Sequence record: ON470603.1
DNA length: 35,056 nt
DNA from: Escherichia phage vB_EcoM-720R4
Reading direction: 5' to 3' (one strand)
The position numbers and the translations under genes were made by a program. Within the stretch, counting starts at the first letter, position 1. The number at the start of each line of letters is the position of its first letter. Shown piece after piece: positions 19,315-28,153 of this stretch. The notes under the pieces were generated by a model, which did no database searches, was not told the DNA's origin, and saw nothing but the letters and a program-made list of their open reading frames with translations.

Positions 19315-19665
19315 TCACTTCAACCGTTCACGGGCCGTCTTCGCCTTATGACACGGCCAGCACAGACTCTGCAGATTACTGTCGGCATCAGTGCCGCCAT
19401 GTGCTTTAGGGATGATGTGGTCAACGGTTTTCGCTTCACGCGCCACACCAGCACGCAGACATAACTGACACAGGCCTTTGTCACGTTGCAGCACACGCAC
19501 ACGGATAACATCCCACTTAGAACCATAACCGCGCTGATGACGGGATTGTCCCGACTTGTATTGCTTCCAGCCTTCGCTTTTGTGGCTTTCACAATAGCCT
19601 GACGAGTCAGTGGTGGTATGGCGGCAGCCGCGAACGCGGCAGGCTTTTGGGGTTCGTGGGGGCAT
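19315..19665 (-). CDS. HNH endonuclease (packaging-associated)
   Basis: 116-aa ORF with Cys pairs and H-N-H residues (DHIIPKAHGGTDADSNLQSLCWPCH); immediately upstream of the terminase genes. Confidence 0.85.
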   Translation of the reverse strand: MPPRTPKACRVRGCRHTTTDSSGYCESHKSEGWKQYKSGQSRHQRGYGSKWDVIRVRVLQRDKGLCQLCLRAGVAREAKTVDHIIPKAHGGTDADSNLQSLCWPCHKAKTARERLK

Positions 19666-20704: not shown

Positions 20705-21031
20705 TTACTCCTTCGAGCTACCAAATTTGTTACCGATTACTCGCATTGCAGCCCCACGAATAGCATCGACACCGATCAGCCCCACGCCACCACCAATGGC
20801 AACAGAAAGCGATTTAGGCCATCCGACATATTCAAGAGCGGATGCAAAGGTCAGCGTCAGAGCGCCACATAGCAAAATCTCGAGCGTTTTTCGCTTCCAG
20901 CCACCACCACCGCCAAAATAGGCGATGCGCAAACCAGCCATAACGATCGACATAATCACTGCACCCAGCGGTGTGTCTCCACGCCACCAGCTCTGGACCA
21001 AGTCCAGCCAGGTATTTGGGTTATGAGGCAT
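20705..21031 (-). CDS. holin (three predicted transmembrane segments)
   Basis: Hydrophobic ORF immediately upstream of the endolysin; start set at the internal ATG (MPHNPN...); the longer track ORF would start at a GTG overlapping the methyltransferase. Confidence 0.55.
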   Translation of the reverse strand: MPHNPNTWLDLVQSWWRGDTPLGAVIMSIVMAGLRIAYFGGGGGWKRKTLEILLCGALTLTFASALEYVGWPKSLSVAIGGGVGLIGVDAIRGAAMRVIGNKFGSSKE

Positions 21032-21107
21032 TTCGTCATCTCTCACCTCGCGATATTTGCGGGTGCTGTGTTGGAAATAAAAAGGCCACGCAACATGGCC
21101 ACCAGAA

Positions 21108-22160
21108 TTATTTCCCCACCAGTTCACTTACCTCTTTCACCGTCTGATTAAACCGCTCTGACTCAAGTTCAACACCTAACGCCCGACGCCCCAGCGCCAT
21201 TGCTGCTTTTATTGTGGAACCGGATCCCATAAAGAAATCAGCAACCAGATCACCAGGTCGACTACTGGCATTGATTATTTGCCGGAGCATATCCGCCGGT
21301 TTCTCGCACGGATGTTTACCCGGGTAGAACTGAACGGGCTTATGCGTCCAGACATCGGTATAAGGCACGGAGACTGATACGGAGAAATAGCGCCGGAGAG
21401 ATTTAAACTCATCCAGCAATTCAGAATATTTGCGATTCAGTGAATCATAAGATGCCACCAGCTGGTGGTGTGGTTGTTCCAGTTGTTGTTCCTGAAACTT
21501 CTCTGCCGCTATACGGGAAAACAGTGCCTGTAACTTCCGATAGTCAGCCTCATTCGGCAACTGCCACTGACTGGCACCAAACCAGTGGGAAACCATATTT
21601 TTCTTACCTGTGGCTTCGGCAATTTGTTTTGCCGTTATACCCAGTTCGGCACGAGCATCCCTGAAATACGATATCAGCGGTGCCATTATGTGCTGTTTGA
21701 GTTCCCTTTCTTTTGCCGCATAGCCGTCACTTTTGCCGCGATATGGCCCCTGGTAATGTTCAGCAAACAGAACGCGCTCTGTGGCAGGAAAATATGCGCG
21801 CAGACTTTCTTTATTACACCCATTCCAACGTCCGGACGGCTTCGCCCAGATGATATGGTTAAGCACGTTGAAACGTTCACGCATCATGATCTCAATATCA
21901 GATGCCAGGCGATGCCCACAGAACAGGTAAAGGCTTCCGGCAGGTTTCAACACCCGCCAGAACTGGGCCAGACAGTGGTCCAGCCACTTAAGGTAATCTT
22001 CGTCCCCTTTCCACTGATTGTCCCAACCGTTAGGTTTCACCTTGAAGTAAGGCGGATCGGTAACAATCAGGTCAATGGAATCATCAGGCAGGGACTGAAT
22101 AAAATGCAGGCAATCAGCGTTGATTAAATCAACACTGTTTATTTTTACAGTATTTTTCAT
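21108..22160 (-). CDS. DNA methyltransferase (N6-adenine/N4-cytosine class, DPPY motif)
   Basis: 350-aa ORF with VTDPPYF motif near the N-terminus and a C-terminal AdoMet-binding-like region (FFMGSGST); no adjacent restriction endonuclease. Confidence 0.85.
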   Translation of the reverse strand: MKNTVKINSVDLINADCLHFIQSLPDDSIDLIVTDPPYFKVKPNGWDNQWKGDEDYLKWLDHCLAQFWRVLKPAGSLYLFCGHRLASDIEIMMRERFNVLNHIIWAKPSGRWNGCNKESLRAYFPATERVLFAEHYQGPYRGKSDGYAAKERELKQHIMAPLISYFRDARAELGITAKQIAEATGKKNMVSHWFGASQWQLPNEADYRKLQALFSRIAAEKFQEQQLEQPHHQLVASYDSLNRKYSELLDEFKSLRRYFSVSVSVPYTDVWTHKPVQFYPGKHPCEKPADMLRQIINASSRPGDLVADFFMGSGSTIKAAMALGRRALGVELESERFNQTVKEVSELVGK

Positions 22161-22310
22161 GGATCAGTAAGCGTAACTCTGGTAGGCTCACTCTGCTTTT
22201 GCGCTAAAGCAGTGGGCCGTGGTTCGCTTGTGACCAGTAAGCATGAGCGAATGGCTGGCAGGTGCTACCAACACCCACCAGCCGCCCATTTTCACAGCAG
22301 GAAACCGCCA

Positions 22311-22514
22311 TTACTGGCAGCGTCTGAATTTATTCCCGTACCCGCCGTTATCCTTCGCCAGACCCGCCAGAACTAACTGAGTCAGTATTAACTGGCACCG
22401 GGCTTCGCTTACTCCGGTAGTTCTCGTCATCATGCGTGGCGTTACCCACTTGTCAGCAGGTAAGAAATGAAGGACTGCGGCGGCGGTTTCTGTCATATCT
22501 TGCTGTTTTAGCAT
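22311..22514 (-). CDS. hypothetical small protein, possibly winged-helix DNA-binding
   Basis: ORF downstream of the candidate late terminator; start set at the internal ATG preceded by AAGGGA. Confidence 0.35.
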   Translation of the reverse strand: MLKQQDMTETAAAVLHFLPADKWVTPRMMTRTTGVSEARCQLILTQLVLAGLAKDNGGYGNKFRRCQ

Positions 22515-22636
22515 GTCTTTTTCCCTTCTGGTTAACATGACATACCAATAACTCTTGTCTAAAAATCCAGCAAGATAAAAAGTCAGTATTCACGACCACC
22601 AGCGTGTTTACTGTACTGCACCAAGTTTACAGGTAC

Positions 22637-22660
22637 AAAAAACCCGCTCAGTGGCGGGTT
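22637..22660 (-). terminator. rho-independent terminator downstream of Q (tR'-like)
   Basis: Minus-strand stem CCCGC-CACTGA-GCGGG followed by TTTTTT; about 40-60 nt downstream of the putative late promoter. Confidence 0.5.
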
Positions 22661-22699
22661 CCTAAATCTTATCAACGGTAGACATACAAAGCCCATCGT

Positions 22700-22740
22700 T
22701 GGGAAAATCTTATCCATATTTTTTGAAAAATGCAAGCATC
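22700..22740 (-). promoter_or_regulatory. candidate Q-dependent late promoter (PR'-like)
   Basis: Minus-strand TTGCAT (22735-22730), 17-bp spacer, TAAGAT (22712-22707), between the Q stop and the terminator. Confidence 0.35.
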
Positions 22741-22766
22741 ATGTCGTCATCTTCGGCGAAAACCAT

Positions 22767-23519
22767 TTATCTTGTCACCTTTCTCAATTGTATCTCTGCA
22801 TATGCTTCTTCCTGCCAGCACTTTGTAACCAGTTTATCAATGACATCTGCATATCCTTTGTACCACTGATAATCCGTCAGGTCTGGTACCAGCTTCTGGA
22901 CATGATGCCGCGCCAGTGTGGTTGGTAAACGGCTAAACCGGTTTCCATTGCAACGCCCACAAATCTTATAAACAGGCGTGCCATGAAGCCGGGTCCTTTT
23001 TTCATCCAGGACAATACCTTTACCCTTACACCCTCTGCACGCTGTGCTGACTTCTCCCTTACCATGACAATGCTGACATAGTTCCTTCACCCACTCTTCC
23101 TTGATAACAGATTCCCCGCTTCTGGAGTGTTTCACCACTTCGCGCAATACATTATGAAATCCAGTACCAGCACAATGCTCACAGCGAGCCTTACTTGCCG
23201 CAGACCTGGAATAATCAGCAAAGGCAAAATTCACAAGGTAAGGGATGATCTGTAACCGGGTTTCTTCACTCAATTTGTTCAATGTCGGGTTATCCAGTGC
23301 CATCGCGTAATTGAGCAGACCTTCAATCGCAAATTGAGGATCCTGAACACCAACTTTTGCCAGGAATAAGGCAAACCCAAGCGGTGCTTTCGACTGCACC
23401 ATCCCCTGCGCAGCCATCACATCCGTAATCGTTAAACCACCTGAGCCTGTCGCCGGTGCGTCATCGCTCAATTTTGGAGATTTTGGGGAGTAATATTTTG
23501 GTAAGGCTTCAAGGTTCAT
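22767..23519 (-). CDS. late-gene antiterminator Q (lambdoid Q family, Cys-rich zinc-binding region)
   Basis: CEHCAGTG ... CQHCHGKGE ... CRGCKGKG ... CGRCNG cysteine clusters; last gene of the early rightward operon, ahead of the late promoter; start at an ATG with GGAG RBS; the track ORF extends to 23561. Confidence 0.75.
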   Translation of the reverse strand: MNLEALPKYYSPKSPKLSDDAPATGSGGLTITDVMAAQGMVQSKAPLGFALFLAKVGVQDPQFAIEGLLNYAMALDNPTLNKLSEETRLQIIPYLVNFAFADYSRSAASKARCEHCAGTGFHNVLREVVKHSRSGESVIKEEWVKELCQHCHGKGEVSTACRGCKGKGIVLDEKRTRLHGTPVYKICGRCNGNRFSRLPTTLARHHVQKLVPDLTDYQWYKGYADVIDKLVTKCWQEEAYAEIQLRKVTR

Positions 23520-23532
23520 GCTCGTTCTCCAC

Positions 23533-24528
23533 TTACGCCAATACGCCAATTGCCAGCGCACGATCGATAAAACGAAATATCAGCTCCAGCTGAGAGCCAT
23601 ACTTCTCTTCAAATGCCACGGTATCCGCATGCAGCTCGTCGTGATGCTTTCTGCACAAAGGCAACACAAAGAGGTCATGCGCTTTTGTACCCATTCCACC
23701 CTGACCGTGGCCTATCAGGTGGTGGGGATCATCAGCAGGCTTTCCACAACATGCACACGGCTGTGTCTTAACCCAGCGCGTGTACTTTTCATTAACCCAG
23801 CGGCGGCGTTTTGGGCGTAACATAAAAGACTCCGGCGACTCCGGATCCACTTTCAGCGCCAGCACCTTTTTCGCCTTATCCTGGATGATGCTGGTGGCAG
23901 GAACCGAAGGCACAAGGTCACTTTCCCGGGTGACAGACGGCACAACAGGCTTCGGTAATCTCAGTGCCTTACGGGCTGCACTTTCCGGTAAGGCATCCGC
24001 CAGGTCATTACGAATCAGCCACCAGCACAGTTCCGGCATTGTCACGGCATGGTTGTCATCAAAACCGAGATCCCGACGGACTACAGACAACACCCAGCGG
24101 GCACAGTTATCCGTTGCCATTGATTCCAGCCGTTCCGTGAACTGATCGCGCAGCTGGTTATCGCAGTGCCAGCACAGACGGATCGCGCCCGGCGCGTGTC
24201 GCATTGTGGTCATGTTCTCGCTGTGCCAGTCGGAATGAGGCCACTGGCAGCCTTTTTCACGAAGTAACCAGCTTTCAAGACATTCCACGCCACCAGCACG
24301 ACGGATCACTGCCTCATTGCGGAACACGGCCCTAACGGCAGGATCATCCGCCAGCGGTTGTGATGCCGCCGGAACGGCACCACTGGCGAAAGATGAATAA
24401 CGTTCCGGCTCAGGCTCCAGCAGGACACGCCCCTGCATAAACAGGGGCATCAGCTCTGAACCTGGTCTGAACAATACAATCCCCATACGCGGGGCTATTT
24501 CAGGGGTCAGTAGTGCTCTCACGGTCAC
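23533..24528 (-). CDS. DUF968-family protein (nin-region protein with C-terminal Cys/His motif)
   Basis: 331-aa ORF with CACCGKPADDPHHLIGHGQGGMGTKAHD...PLCRKHHDELH at the C-terminus; positioned between KilA-N and Q. Confidence 0.7.
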   Translation of the reverse strand: MTVRALLTPEIAPRMGIVLFRPGSELMPLFMQGRVLLEPEPERYSSFASGAVPAASQPLADDPAVRAVFRNEAVIRRAGGVECLESWLLREKGCQWPHSDWHSENMTTMRHAPGAIRLCWHCDNQLRDQFTERLESMATDNCARWVLSVVRRDLGFDDNHAVTMPELCWWLIRNDLADALPESAARKALRLPKPVVPSVTRESDLVPSVPATSIIQDKAKKVLALKVDPESPESFMLRPKRRRWVNEKYTRWVKTQPCACCGKPADDPHHLIGHGQGGMGTKAHDLFVLPLCRKHHDELHADTVAFEEKYGSQLELIFRFIDRALAIGVLA

Positions 24529-24529
24529 C

Positions 24530-25339
24530 TCAATGAACGGTATCGAGCAGCTTTAACAGCTCAGGGAATCGGGATTCGAAGAAATGCGGCTGCGTCTCAC
24601 GCGGATTTGCGGGACTGGTGATGTTCTTGCCGAACATGCAGCCTTTCGCCGTCAGCGACCAGAATTTTTTGATGTTGTTAATCCCGGTACGGCTGTATCG
24701 TTCGCGCTGCTCGACGATCCCCAGCTTCACCATCTGGTGATATGCCTGATTAGCCGTCAGGCGGATACCATACTGCTTCAGCAGTGCACTCAGCGACAGC
24801 GTCGGGCGGCTTGAGCCATCAGGCGCGTCAGCAGGTGCATCAATGGCATAGCGCGGTGCCAGATTCGGTAAGCCAACAGCCTCCTGGAGTTTCTGACAGG
24901 CCCCAAGCACAGATGAGTTAGACAGATTTAACTCCCGGCGCATAAAGTCCAGCAGAATCACGCCAGCCTGCATCTTGTCAGCCGCCTGTCCGGATAATTT
25001 TTCCGGTGCGCTGGTTACCATATCGAAAGTACGGATCACCTTCAGATGGAATGACGGGCTGATCCACATTGCATAGGCATACACCAGTTCCTTACAGACA
25101 TACGTTCCCCGTTCATTTCCCCCATGAATCACACTCACCGGGTCAACACCCAAATTCTGGGTGTTGGTTAATTCATGAACAAGCTCAACAGTTTGTTGGC
25201 TGGAAAGAAACTTTCCTGGCTCCTTGGTTCTGGCATTTGCACCAGATGCTACTGCTGCGCGATGCAGATCGTTCAGGCTGTAACGCCCATAAGCATCACG
25301 ACGAACTTCAATACCATCAATAACCATCAGATTATTCAT
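24530..25339 (-). CDS. KilA-N domain protein (antirepressor-like)
   Basis: 269-aa ORF whose N-terminus resembles KilA-N domains (GIEVRRDAYGRYSLNDLHRAA...). Confidence 0.7.
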   Translation of the reverse strand: MNNLMVIDGIEVRRDAYGRYSLNDLHRAAVASGANARTKEPGKFLSSQQTVELVHELTNTQNLGVDPVSVIHGGNERGTYVCKELVYAYAMWISPSFHLKVIRTFDMVTSAPEKLSGQAADKMQAGVILLDFMRRELNLSNSSVLGACQKLQEAVGLPNLAPRYAIDAPADAPDGSSRPTLSLSALLKQYGIRLTANQAYHQMVKLGIVEQRERYSRTGINNIKKFWSLTAKGCMFGKNITSPANPRETQPHFFESRFPELLKLLDTVH

Positions 25340-25358
25340 ACTTCGTTTCTCCTCTTAA

Positions 25359-25748
25359 TCAGGCGGCTGCACCCGCCGTTTTCTCGTACTTACTGATAGT
25401 GATTTCGACCTTCCCTTCCGGGATAACCGGCCCCCACTCCACCAGCATTCTTTTCACCTGGCTGTCGTCCACCCACACACCCGCGTGGGTCAGGGCGTCA
25501 AACAGCGCCTTGTTATAGTTGTCCAGATCGCGAAGCCGGTTATCCGGAGGAAACAACACGATCTCCACTGAAGCTGGTGCCGACGTTGGTTTCGGCAAAC
25601 GACGTAACTGCTCAATGATGGCTGCACACGCTGCGCTCTGGAATTTTCGCCCCGCCGCGCTTATCAGGCTCTTACCTGCAAGCGCCCCTTTGTTGGGGTG
25701 TCGCCAGTACGTGTTCACGCTGGGCGGAAAAGGCAGTATTAGCTTCAT
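25359..25748 (-). CDS. rusA: RusA-family Holliday junction resolvase
   Basis: 129-aa ORF with DLDNYNKALFDALTHAGVWVDDSQV, typical of RusA; nin-region position. Confidence 0.8.
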   Translation of the reverse strand: MKLILPFPPSVNTYWRHPNKGALAGKSLISAAGRKFQSAACAAIIEQLRRLPKPTSAPASVEIVLFPPDNRLRDLDNYNKALFDALTHAGVWVDDSQVKRMLVEWGPVIPEGKVEITISKYEKTAGAAA

Positions 25749-26071
25749 ACTTTCAGGCCCCTCTCATGTAACCAGTGGGCTGCACGCAGCCTGGCGTTTG
25801 CCTCACCGGCAAGCAGTGCGCGGATAATCCCGACCGCCTCGCTGTCGTCGTCCTTCACCGCGGTATGAAGCGTGATGCCCCGGGCCACGCCACGCTTTAT
25901 CGTGATGACGCCTTTTTTCTCCAGTGCGCGAAGATGCTCCACCGCTGCATTCACTGAACGGTATCCCAGCATGGTTGCCACCTCCTGATTGGTTGGCGGG
26001 AAGCCACGTTCTTTCTGATAAGAAATCAGCATATCCAGCACCTGCTGCTGGCATTGAGTTAACGTCGTCAT
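25745..26071 (-). CDS. LexA-DNA-binding-domain-like protein lacking a protease domain
   Basis: 108-aa ORF; N-terminal LTQCQQQVLDMLISYQKERGFPPTNQEVATMLGYRSVNAAVEHLRALEKKGVI resembles the LexA winged-helix domain; no S24 peptidase region. Confidence 0.55.
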   Translation of the reverse strand: MTTLTQCQQQVLDMLISYQKERGFPPTNQEVATMLGYRSVNAAVEHLRALEKKGVITIKRGVARGITLHTAVKDDDSEAVGIIRALLAGEANARLRAAHWLHERGLKV

Positions 26072-26754
26072 GCCGCCATCTCCCTGACCAGTTTTTCTGC
26101 CTGCTGGCGAACCTGCGCCAGAAAGGCCTCACCACATGCCTCAAGTTCATCGCGCCCGATGTAGCTGATTGCCGGTCCCTTCCAGGTCTTGTCGAAAACA
26201 GCAATAGCACCAGCGAAGAAAGCGCCTGTCGGCACCTGCTTCTCATCCTTCGGGATAAACCAGGCAGGCAGTTCAAAACCAATACGCCCGCGAATAAAAG
26301 CAATATGATCTGCATCTTCCGGCCACCACACTTCGCTGGTGGCAGCTTTGATCAGGAAAACATAGCGCCCGCCTTTATCACGCATGGCACTGGCATGCTT
26401 CATGATGTAACGCATGCCGGTGATGTATTGCCCCTCATGCTGACTGGCGCGGCTGTATGGGGGATTACCAAAGGCAGCACCTTTAAGCTCCGCAAGGCGT
26501 TCTGACCAGTCATGCGCCAGCGCGTTGTCTTCCGCCGTGTAATACGCAGCACATTTGGCGTTATCACCGTCAGTGAACAGATCCAGAACAAACGGGCCAA
26601 ACAGGGTGTTAATTCCCCAGAAAATGTTGTCCGGCGTGCGCCACTGATCGCCCACTTCCTTCAGTTCATGGGCTGGTTTGTTCCGCAGTTCCGCCAGCGC
26701 CTGGCAATATTTATTACTCATTAAGCCCCCACGTAATTCCCTGAGAGATACCAC
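26068..26754 (-). CDS. phage Dam-like DNA N6-adenine methyltransferase (NPPY motif)
   Basis: GNPPYSR catalytic motif; an alternative start at 26721 (MSNKYCQ...) would abut the upstream gene's stop. Confidence 0.85.
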   Translation of the reverse strand: MVSLRELRGGLMSNKYCQALAELRNKPAHELKEVGDQWRTPDNIFWGINTLFGPFVLDLFTDGDNAKCAAYYTAEDNALAHDWSERLAELKGAAFGNPPYSRASQHEGQYITGMRYIMKHASAMRDKGGRYVFLIKAATSEVWWPEDADHIAFIRGRIGFELPAWFIPKDEKQVPTGAFFAGAIAVFDKTWKGPAISYIGRDELEACGEAFLAQVRQQAEKLVREMAA

Positions 26755-27215: not shown

Positions 27216-28153
27216 CCCCTGAATCCTGCCGGGATCTGGCTGTAGTCCACGTTGTCGTAACTGGATTTGAAGTACGGATCTTCACGTTTTTCTGTGTATG
27301 TGCTGACGGACGGCGATAAGCGCAGGGAAAGCTCATCCCATTTTTCCCGCAGCTTCGACGGGCTGAGCACGTTACGGCACCAGAACGGATCGCGGCTGAC
27401 GCGGCTGTACATCTCGCAGATTTGTTTGTGAGTACGACCATCCTGCACACACATCAGGCGAATTTCGTTTGCCCAGGCTGTCCAGTTCGGTTCTTTGGGA
27501 CGAACCACCTCGCCGTCACATTCGGCAGCCTGCTCGTACAGGGCGATGATTTTTTTCCAGAGCCACTGTGCGCAGGTCAAATCATCCTGCGTCCCCCACT
27601 GGCGTTTTTTAGGGCTGAATACAACCGCATCAGGATGGCGAGTTAAAAAATCCTGTTCAGCCGTCTGCGTGTCCGGTTGCGAAGCGTCCGGACGAGAAGG
27701 TTTTTTATCTGACGGATCATGTTTTGATTTTACTGACGGATCCCCGCCAGATTCTGACGGGTGAAAACCCGCTTTTTTGCCAGATTTCGACGCATCAAAT
27801 TTTGACGGGTCAGATTTTGATGCGTCAGATTTTGACGGGTCAGAATCTGACAGTTGAGAAAATGCCGCTGCCTGAAGCTTCGCAACGTTAAGCTGATAAA
27901 CATTCGACGCATTGCGGTTACCCTGGCGACGCGCCTTACGCGTTAACCAGCCTTCTGCTTCCAGCCGTGCGATAGCCGTTCTGACGGTACTCATCCCCGC
28001 GCCAATCTGGCGGGCAATGGTTTCAATTGATGGCCAGCACACACCTTCGTCATTACTGAAATCAGCCAGGCGGGCCATAATTGCCACGCTGGATAATTTC
28101 ATGCCTGACGCTGCGCAACCATCCCATACATAGCCGGTTAATTTAGTGCTCAT
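27212..28153 (-). CDS. replication initiation protein (O-like, HTH N-terminal domain, iteron-containing)
   Basis: 313-aa ORF with N-terminal helix-turn-helix region and a central Ser/Asp/Lys repeat linker encoded by DNA iterons; located downstream of cro and the CII/YdaT-like gene. Confidence 0.7.
   Translation of the reverse strand: MSTKLTGYVWDGCAASGMKLSSVAIMARLADFSNDEGVCWPSIETIARQIGAGMSTVRTAIARLEAEGWLTRKARRQGNRNASNVYQLNVAKLQAAAFSQLSDSDPSKSDASKSDPSKFDASKSGKKAGFHPSESGGDPSVKSKHDPSDKKPSRPDASQPDTQTAEQDFLTRHPDAVVFSPKKRQWGTQDDLTCAQWLWKKIIALYEQAAECDGEVVRPKEPNWTAWANEIRLMCVQDGRTHKQICEMYSRVSRDPFWCRNVLSPSKLREKWDELSLRLSPSVSTYTEKREDPYFKSSYDNVDYSQIPAGFRG
27722..27853. repeat. iteron array (about 7 direct repeats, consensus TCAGATTTTGACGGG) inside the O-like gene: candidate replication origin
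   Basis: Tandem 14-15-bp repeats read directly (e.g. TCAAATTTTGACGGG TCAGATTTTGATGCG TCAGATTTTGACGGG TCAGAATCTGACAG). Confidence 0.55.

Follow-up and report, generated by a model that had tools for sequence, protein, structure and literature searches.

An early Dam-type and a late M.EcoGII-type orphan adenine methyltransferase in an SfV-like prophage, Escherichia phage vB_EcoM-720R4

Two genes for N6-adenine DNA methyltransferases of different families are present on the minus strand of a 35,056-nucleotide stretch of Escherichia phage vB_EcoM-720R4 (ON470603.1; the whole stretch analysed is referred to hereafter as the window), which represents an SfV/mEp460-like temperate prophage of the E. 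coli/Shigella type. One of them (21108-22160) is an M.EcoGII-family gene placed among the late functions and the other (26068-26721) a phage Dam-type gene placed among the early ones. We suggest that the two are self-standing enzymes, with the early Dam-type protein serving GATC sites on replicating phage DNA and the late M.EcoGII-type protein protecting DNA that is to be packaged, and we regard this reading as likely. An original prediction, made from the DNA letters alone, had proposed a pair of orphan methyltransferases of different families, and in this it was right: the proteins belong to PF01555 and PF05869, respectively, by matches to curated profile hidden Markov models and not through chance motifs.

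The late gene encodes an intact protein of 350 residues, which scores 146.6 bits against the Pfam profile PF01555 (N6_N4_Mtase; cut-off 26.7), covering positions 1-220 of 221, and which also matches phrog_67 ("DNA methyltransferase") and the PADLOC Type II methyltransferase model (MTase_II PDLC03265, E 1.6e-152). Motif IV (VTDPPYF, residues 33-39) lies near the N-terminus and the FxGxG motif I (FFMGSGST, residues 309-316) near the C-terminus, with a central variable region in between. This is the motif order of beta-class enzymes, and the one described for M.EcoGII. Among solved structures only distant beta-class enzymes are matched (RsrI, MboIIA, and CcrM; E ~1e-24). The product of SfV orf48 is nearly the same protein (347 of 350 residues identical, 99%), and the identity to M.EcoGII (349 residues) is ~81% over the full length, a value good to about one percent either way, as the M.EcoGII sequence came from the machine-read supplementary tables of the SUPREM study (PMC11551740), where a few letters may be wrong. 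The identity is 81.4% to the enzyme of phage 1720a-02; Anc291, which is the first of the ancestors reconstructed for the M.EcoGII clade, is matched at 89%.

Judged by this close full-length relationship, together with a prophage location without an adjacent restriction enzyme, the late protein is assigned to the M.EcoGII clade. M.EcoGII itself, a beta-class enzyme encoded by an E. coli O104:H4 prophage, methylates adenine in any context (85% to >99% of adenines); it was silent in the native lysogen and slowed growth on expression, and was described as one of "a very large family" whose members are found in prophages of E. coli and in phages of enterobacteria, among them the "very similar" enzyme of 1720a-02 (PMC5778455). 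In the SUPREM study, activity on both DNA and RNA was found for every ancestor that was reconstructed, reaching back toward the branching-off of the site-specific M.PflMI; no sequence motif was evident on RNA for Anc291 or Anc284, and Anc284, the deeper of the two, kept the non-specificity (PMC11551740). In addition, a methylome study of Shiga toxin-producing E. coli (STEC) lists homologues with 92-94% amino acid similarity to M.EcoGI/GII as "nonspecific". Because the late enzyme falls inside the phylogenetic bracket of the Anc291 and Anc284 ancestors, non-specific adenine methylation is its most likely activity, and we are fairly confident of this assignment by homology.

The placement of the late gene between the Q side and the holin, as originally predicted, was confirmed from the list of open reading frames (ORFs). 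The gene for the late antiterminator Q (22767-23519, minus strand; PF03589 Antiterm, E 1.3e-53; phrog_127; "antitermination protein" in the PGAP annotation) lies on one side of it. On the other side, forming the downstream border of the slot, is the first gene of the lysis cassette (20705-21031, minus strand), which is called a lambda-family phage holin by PGAP in the best-matching prophage, that of E. coli HH107, and S in SfV. Reading from Q towards the holin, we see by eye a putative pR'-like late promoter (22707-22735, minus strand; TTGCAT-17 nt-TAAGAT), followed by a tR'-like hairpin with a T-run (22635-22659, minus strand; ACCCGC-CACTGA-GCGGGT-TTTTTGT), which is found in the sequence between Q and a small ORF of 67 codons. 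The SfV record places a putative rho-independent terminator at the equivalent position. A second terminator-like hairpin with a T-run (21074-21100, minus strand), detected by a terminator scan and visible in the sequence, separates the stop of the methyltransferase gene from the holin, and a terminator is also annotated at this position in SfV and Ayreon. The order Q, terminator, small ORF, methyltransferase, terminator, holin is kept in SfV, Hafnia phage yong2, Morganella phage IME1369_02, and 1720a-02, as well as in N15, where the small ORF is missing. From the promoter-like element, the hairpins, and the N15 parallel, we conclude that, in the late transcript that depends on Q, the methyltransferase gene is the first of appreciable size.

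The early gene was correctly recognised in the original prediction as an NPPY-motif, Dam-like gene in an early nin-like region, but its start was placed too far upstream. GTG 26754 opens the longest ORF only, whereas both PGAP and the SfV record start the gene at ATG 26721, giving 217 residues (26068-26721, minus strand); this start shares bases with the TAA stop codon of the PerC-like gene that lies upstream (TAATG). The ORF is intact and its product carries the motif FGNPPYS. It scores 155.7 bits against PF05869 (Dam; cut-off 28.1) and 255.3 bits against the equivalog model TIGR01712 "phage N-6-adenine-methyltransferase" (cut-off 97.05; all of profile positions 1-165), and it aligns end to end (1-217) with PADLOC model PDLC03263, a profile of exactly 217 positions. 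Identity to the SfV product annotated "dam: DNA adenine methylase" (orf41) is 97.8%, and the search against solved structures returned zero matches at E up to 0.01. Allison et al., in the SfV genome paper of 2002, are said to have spoken of "multiple DNA methylases" and to have demonstrated the Dam activity of orf41 experimentally. Most likely, then, the early enzyme methylates GATC, as its homology to the SfV protein suggests. Its gene is linked to its neighbours by start/stop codon overlaps that run through the genes for an O-like replication protein, YfdN, the Dam-type enzyme, a LexA DNA-binding-domain protein, and RusA, and it is thus embedded in an early-right gene string. Gene order therefore supports the predicted placement of the two methyltransferase genes in an early and a Q-dependent late operon.

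Several other enzymes were considered as models for the Dam-type protein and rejected: M.EcoGV, which is discussed with the MT-A70 family in a paper on STEC rRNA methyltransferases; M.EcoGIX, which is plasmid-borne and single-strand-specific; and Hia5/Hin1523, which are alpha-class. We also observed that the Dam-type methyltransferase (26068-26721; L001 6808-7461) is labelled "phosphoadenosine phosphosulfate reductase" in the RefSeq re-annotations of SfV and SfII and in the records of phages such as Kati. The protein matches phrog_33262, a profile of 495 positions, over the C-terminal positions 283-492 only, which suggests that the family includes fusion proteins. The label is an annotation-transfer error, apparently with phrog_33262 as its source.

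Restriction-enzyme models found no match among the neighbours of either methyltransferase in the window, save for weak generic HNH hits, and no restriction enzyme is present in the annotations of SfV and the HH107 prophage. Both methyltransferases are therefore orphans and not parts of a Type II restriction-modification system. The original prediction had likewise seen no adjacent restriction endonuclease, and a cognate restriction gene was sought in relatives; none was found in SfV, in HH107, or in more distant phages, where the late methyltransferase gene has Q on one side and the lysis or stx genes on the other, with no nuclease.

We propose the following sequence of events. Upon derepression, the early-right operon, with its replication and nin-type genes, would supply the phage Dam. 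Host Dam is limiting, and the phage genome would replicate faster than it can follow; lambda and P22 virion DNA is known to be undermethylated by host Dam. The phage enzyme could thus methylate GATC on replicating phage DNA independently of the host. Later, under the action of Q, the late transcript would read through both hairpins, and the M.EcoGII-type enzyme would be made only after induction, alongside lysis and packaging proteins, because its gene lies in the Q-antiterminated transcript and is bracketed by the two terminator-like hairpins. Before packaging, many adenines in the DNA would become methylated, largely or wholly irrespective of sequence, and packaged genomes could then resist adenine-methylation-sensitive Type I, II, and III restriction systems of the next host. 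The authors of the M.EcoGII study proposed that the enzyme is switched on at induction to overcome restriction (PMC5778455), a view shared by a 2025 review, and the protective role offered in the original prediction agrees with this accepted role of the family. Neither gene is likely to be expressed in the lysogen, and for the late gene such silence would fit its position behind the hairpin downstream of Q. In a stable lysogen, neither enzyme is expected to mark the host chromosome.

Several points weigh against this proposal. We infer the specificities of both enzymes from homology, and the expression timing and protective role likewise go beyond the gene content itself. For the late enzyme, ~19% of residues differ from M.EcoGII, including residues in the central region, where target recognition would lie. 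For the early enzyme, M.EcoVT2Dam, the one PF05869 member whose GATC specificity could be documented here (its target is stated as GATC in the STEC methylome study), is only 31% identical, and the assignment of GATC therefore leans mainly on the SfV homologue. The putative late promoter is a weak match to the consensus, its -35 element agreeing at only 3 of 6 positions, and for this reason the consensus scan missed it. With plasmid DNA heavily modified by M.EcoGII, transformation of E. coli drops by 4-5 orders of magnitude (PMC5778455), which indicates that near-complete methylation of phage DNA might harm, and that the natural level may be partial. Finally, protection alone fails to explain a separate Dam, because a non-specific adenine methylase covers GATC too. 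By the same token, the "distinct targets" of the original prediction do not stand as worded: the targets are likely nested, since the GATC sites of the Dam-like enzyme would be included among the adenines, in any context, that the M.EcoGII-like enzyme would accept.

The differences from M.EcoGII, many of which fall in the central part of the protein (residues 130-260), would leave room for the late DPPY enzyme to be a sequence-specific orphan methyltransferase directed against one particular restriction system. Small changes in the target-recognition domain can alter specificity in other methyltransferases (Type IIG), and M.PflMI, the nearest relative with confirmed site specificity, belongs to the same wider cluster. 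However, with 89% identity to Anc291 and with the further-back Anc284 still non-specific, the whole clade should be non-specific, and the STEC homologues of M.EcoGI/GII are listed as such. We therefore consider a dedicated, site-specific late enzyme unlikely.

Still less probable, in our judgement, is an epigenetic role in the lysogen, in which one enzyme or the pair would be expressed there to regulate genes of the host or the prophage. The SfV record does provide dam with its own -35/-10 signals inside the upstream gene, M.EcoGIII influences ~1,900 genes, and an MT-A70 enzyme of Stx phages changes induction frequency. At the same time, no methylation by M.EcoGI or M.EcoGII is detectable in the native lysogen, and their expression does harm; a phage Dam would bring nothing detectable to a Dam-positive host, and the late gene of the window sits behind the terminator-like hairpin downstream of Q. 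The methylome of an O111 STEC strain with homologues of these enzymes contains no additional motifs. The same observations speak against the alteration of host gene expression that had originally been offered as a second role.

The small conserved ORF between Q and the late methyltransferase (22311-22514, minus strand; 67 residues) belongs to phrog_331, a family of unknown function, and stands directly upstream of the methyltransferase gene. Against Pfam, it yields sub-threshold matches only, all of them to winged-helix families, and its single-sequence AlphaFold (AF2) model consists of three helices at low confidence (predicted local distance difference test, pLDDT, of 57, too low for a fold search); it is a possible winged-helix protein. 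In every phage seen with both genes (those of E. coli, Klebsiella, Hafnia, and Morganella), the ORF lies ~140-350 bp upstream of the late methyltransferase; Providencia phages also have both, the adjacency being seen for phages of the four other hosts. It occurs as two alleles, ~50% identical, which recombine independently of the methyltransferase allele. Thus, the version in the window is 100% identical to that of mEp460 and 50.7% identical to SfV orf47, and SfV carries the other allele beside a 99%-identical methyltransferase. The ORF is absent from N15. Very tentatively, we can imagine a role dedicated to the M.EcoGII-family enzyme, as its controller or its partner, although we think this rather unlikely. 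By analogy with the C proteins of restriction-modification systems, it might delay or limit expression of a toxic, non-specific methyltransferase, or it might alternatively steer the enzyme toward phage DNA. The ORF appears to be undescribed, and work on M.EcoGII treats the enzyme as self-sufficient.

A conserved ORF in this position is also among the points in favour of RNA, ribosomal or messenger, as the physiological substrate of the late enzyme, which would then serve to adjust translation in the lytic phase. In vitro, RNA is methylated by M.EcoGII and by its ancestors, and 16S rRNA is the reported preference of an MT-A70 prophage methyltransferase in complex with a partner protein. However, M.EcoGII is far more active on DNA (~90% of adenines, compared to ~30% on RNA; PMC11551740) and works without a partner, while the MT-A70 enzyme represents an unrelated family. 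We regard RNA as an improbable main substrate.

Two HNH-type proteins are encoded in the region, one of 116 residues (19315-19665, minus strand), directly upstream of the small and large terminase genes, and a DUF968/HNH protein of 331 residues (23533-24528, minus strand), just upstream of Q. HNH proteins encoded beside terminase genes occupy the known position of cos-packaging helpers. Neither of the two resembles a restriction enzyme paired with the methyltransferases. The idea that one of them is an unrecognised nuclease, joined with either methyltransferase in a restriction-modification or defence system, draws on their presence and on weak PADLOC REase_II and Type IV matches of the smaller protein (E ~1e-5), but it can practically be set aside, given that the smaller protein is placed as cos-packaging HNH proteins are, that the DUF968 protein has no PADLOC match and is separated from both methyltransferases by other genes, and that the same methyltransferases occur with different neighbours in other phages, including N15 and Stx phages.

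The best match to the window is a chromosomal prophage of E. coli HH107, with 99.1% identity over 25 kb. Across the part with the two methyltransferases, identity to Shigella phage SfV and the coliphages mEp460 and Ayreon is 97-98%. From right to left on the minus strand, the genes run from the O-like replication protein through the PerC-like YfdN, the Dam-type methyltransferase, a 108-residue LexA DNA-binding-domain protein, RusA, a KilA-N protein, and the DUF968/HNH protein to Q; after Q come the 67-residue ORF, the DPPY methyltransferase, holin, endolysin, Rz/Rz1, the smaller HNH protein, and the small and large terminase subunits. No tRNA genes of the kind that Stx phages carry between Q and the lysis genes are found in the window.

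Some further features of this arrangement were noted. The gene at 25745-26071 (minus strand), whose start overlaps the stop of the Dam-type gene and whose stop overlaps the start of rusA, encodes the LexA DNA-binding domain only (PF01726, 69 bits), without a protease domain, and its product could bind SOS boxes. Within the O-like replication gene, a 15-bp unit is repeated four times (27781-27844; consensus CAGATTTTGACGGGT) and encodes the repetitive stretch DPSKSDASKS; these repeats resemble the iterons of a replication origin, such as lambda has in its O gene. In HH107, just past the right end of the window (L003 36991-38284), a hypothetical gene and a Panacea-domain gene directly follow the part matching the window and abut a truncated, dusA-like fragment of a tRNA-dihydrouridine synthase gene. 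No integrase is annotated in HH107 at this end, beyond the right edge of the window.

Of 5,426 complete E. coli genomes, 1,256 (23%) contain the late gene and 2,120 (39%) the Dam-type gene, and the whole 5.6-kb segment is present at a coverage of at least 80% in 776; this last figure is an upper bound for co-occurrence, since a match of 80% could just miss one gene. The two genes lie ~5 kb apart in SfV, mEp460-type phages, PhiR55_1, and Stx2c-converting phages.

GATC occurs in the window at near random frequency (134 sites, observed/expected ratio of 0.76). Palindromic hexamers composed of G and C only, which adenine methylation cannot protect, are strongly depleted (0.33), with no GGCGCC where 11 are expected and a single GCCGGC where 16 are. 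A similar depletion was seen in VT2-Sakai (0.42, in the 50 kb examined, which have no annotated M.EcoGII-type gene) and at the HH107 locus (0.45, for what is mostly the same prophage with ~11 kb of host flank). As it is shared by VT2-Sakai and the HH107 locus, this depletion is a general enterobacterial signature, and restriction-site avoidance was rejected as evidence of methyltransferase function.

Between about a quarter and two-fifths of the complete E. coli genomes thus carry these prophage methyltransferases, and the late enzyme comes from the family of a commercial, well-characterised enzyme. Induction can switch the enzymes on, and the phage then released, like any DNA that is transduced, would differ in its sensitivity to restriction. 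The biological question raised by the pair is why a phage with a non-specific adenine methylase also keeps an early Dam.

The pair itself is already known, in spite of the novelty implied by the original prediction: it is a re-sighting of SfV orf41 (dam) and orf48, both annotated in the SfV record, and of the M.EcoGII family. SfV (U82619 / NC_003444) is the closest parallel, encoding proteins 347/350 (orf48) and 97.8% (dam, orf41) identical to the pair in the window, in surrounding DNA that is 97.9% identical. It shares the order Q, small ORF, methyltransferase, terminator, and S, as well as the order orf40 (PerC-like), dam, orf42 (LexA DNA-binding domain), and RusA; the host, however, is Shigella flexneri in the case of SfV and E. 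coli in the case of the window, and the small ORF is a different allele.

For the late enzyme taken separately, M.EcoGII and M.EcoGI from prophages of E. coli O104:H4 C227-11 are likewise beta-class, prophage-borne, and of nearly the same size (349 vs 350 residues). The homologues from the linear-plasmid prophages N15 (gp52), PY54, and phiKO2 are 56-61% identical to it. Gp52 sits in a corresponding series of late promoter, terminator, methyltransferase, terminator, and holin, although N15 has no small upstream ORF and is a different type of phage. The Dam-type enzyme resembles M.EcoVT2Dam (orf32 of VT2-Sakai), another small PF05869 protein with an NPPY motif, no separate recognition domain, and a location in a lambdoid nin region; the 31% identity extends over 144 aligned residues, and the protein in the window is longer (217 vs 175 residues). 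Analogous to the late enzyme in outline are Mu Mom and the promiscuous alpha-class enzymes Hia5/Hin1523, which also represent broad adenine modification that a temperate phage makes late, that is silent in the lysogen, and that is toxic if mis-expressed. These are nevertheless unrelated proteins: Mom adds an acetamido adduct, and Hia5, as an alpha-class enzyme, has its motifs in the reverse order.

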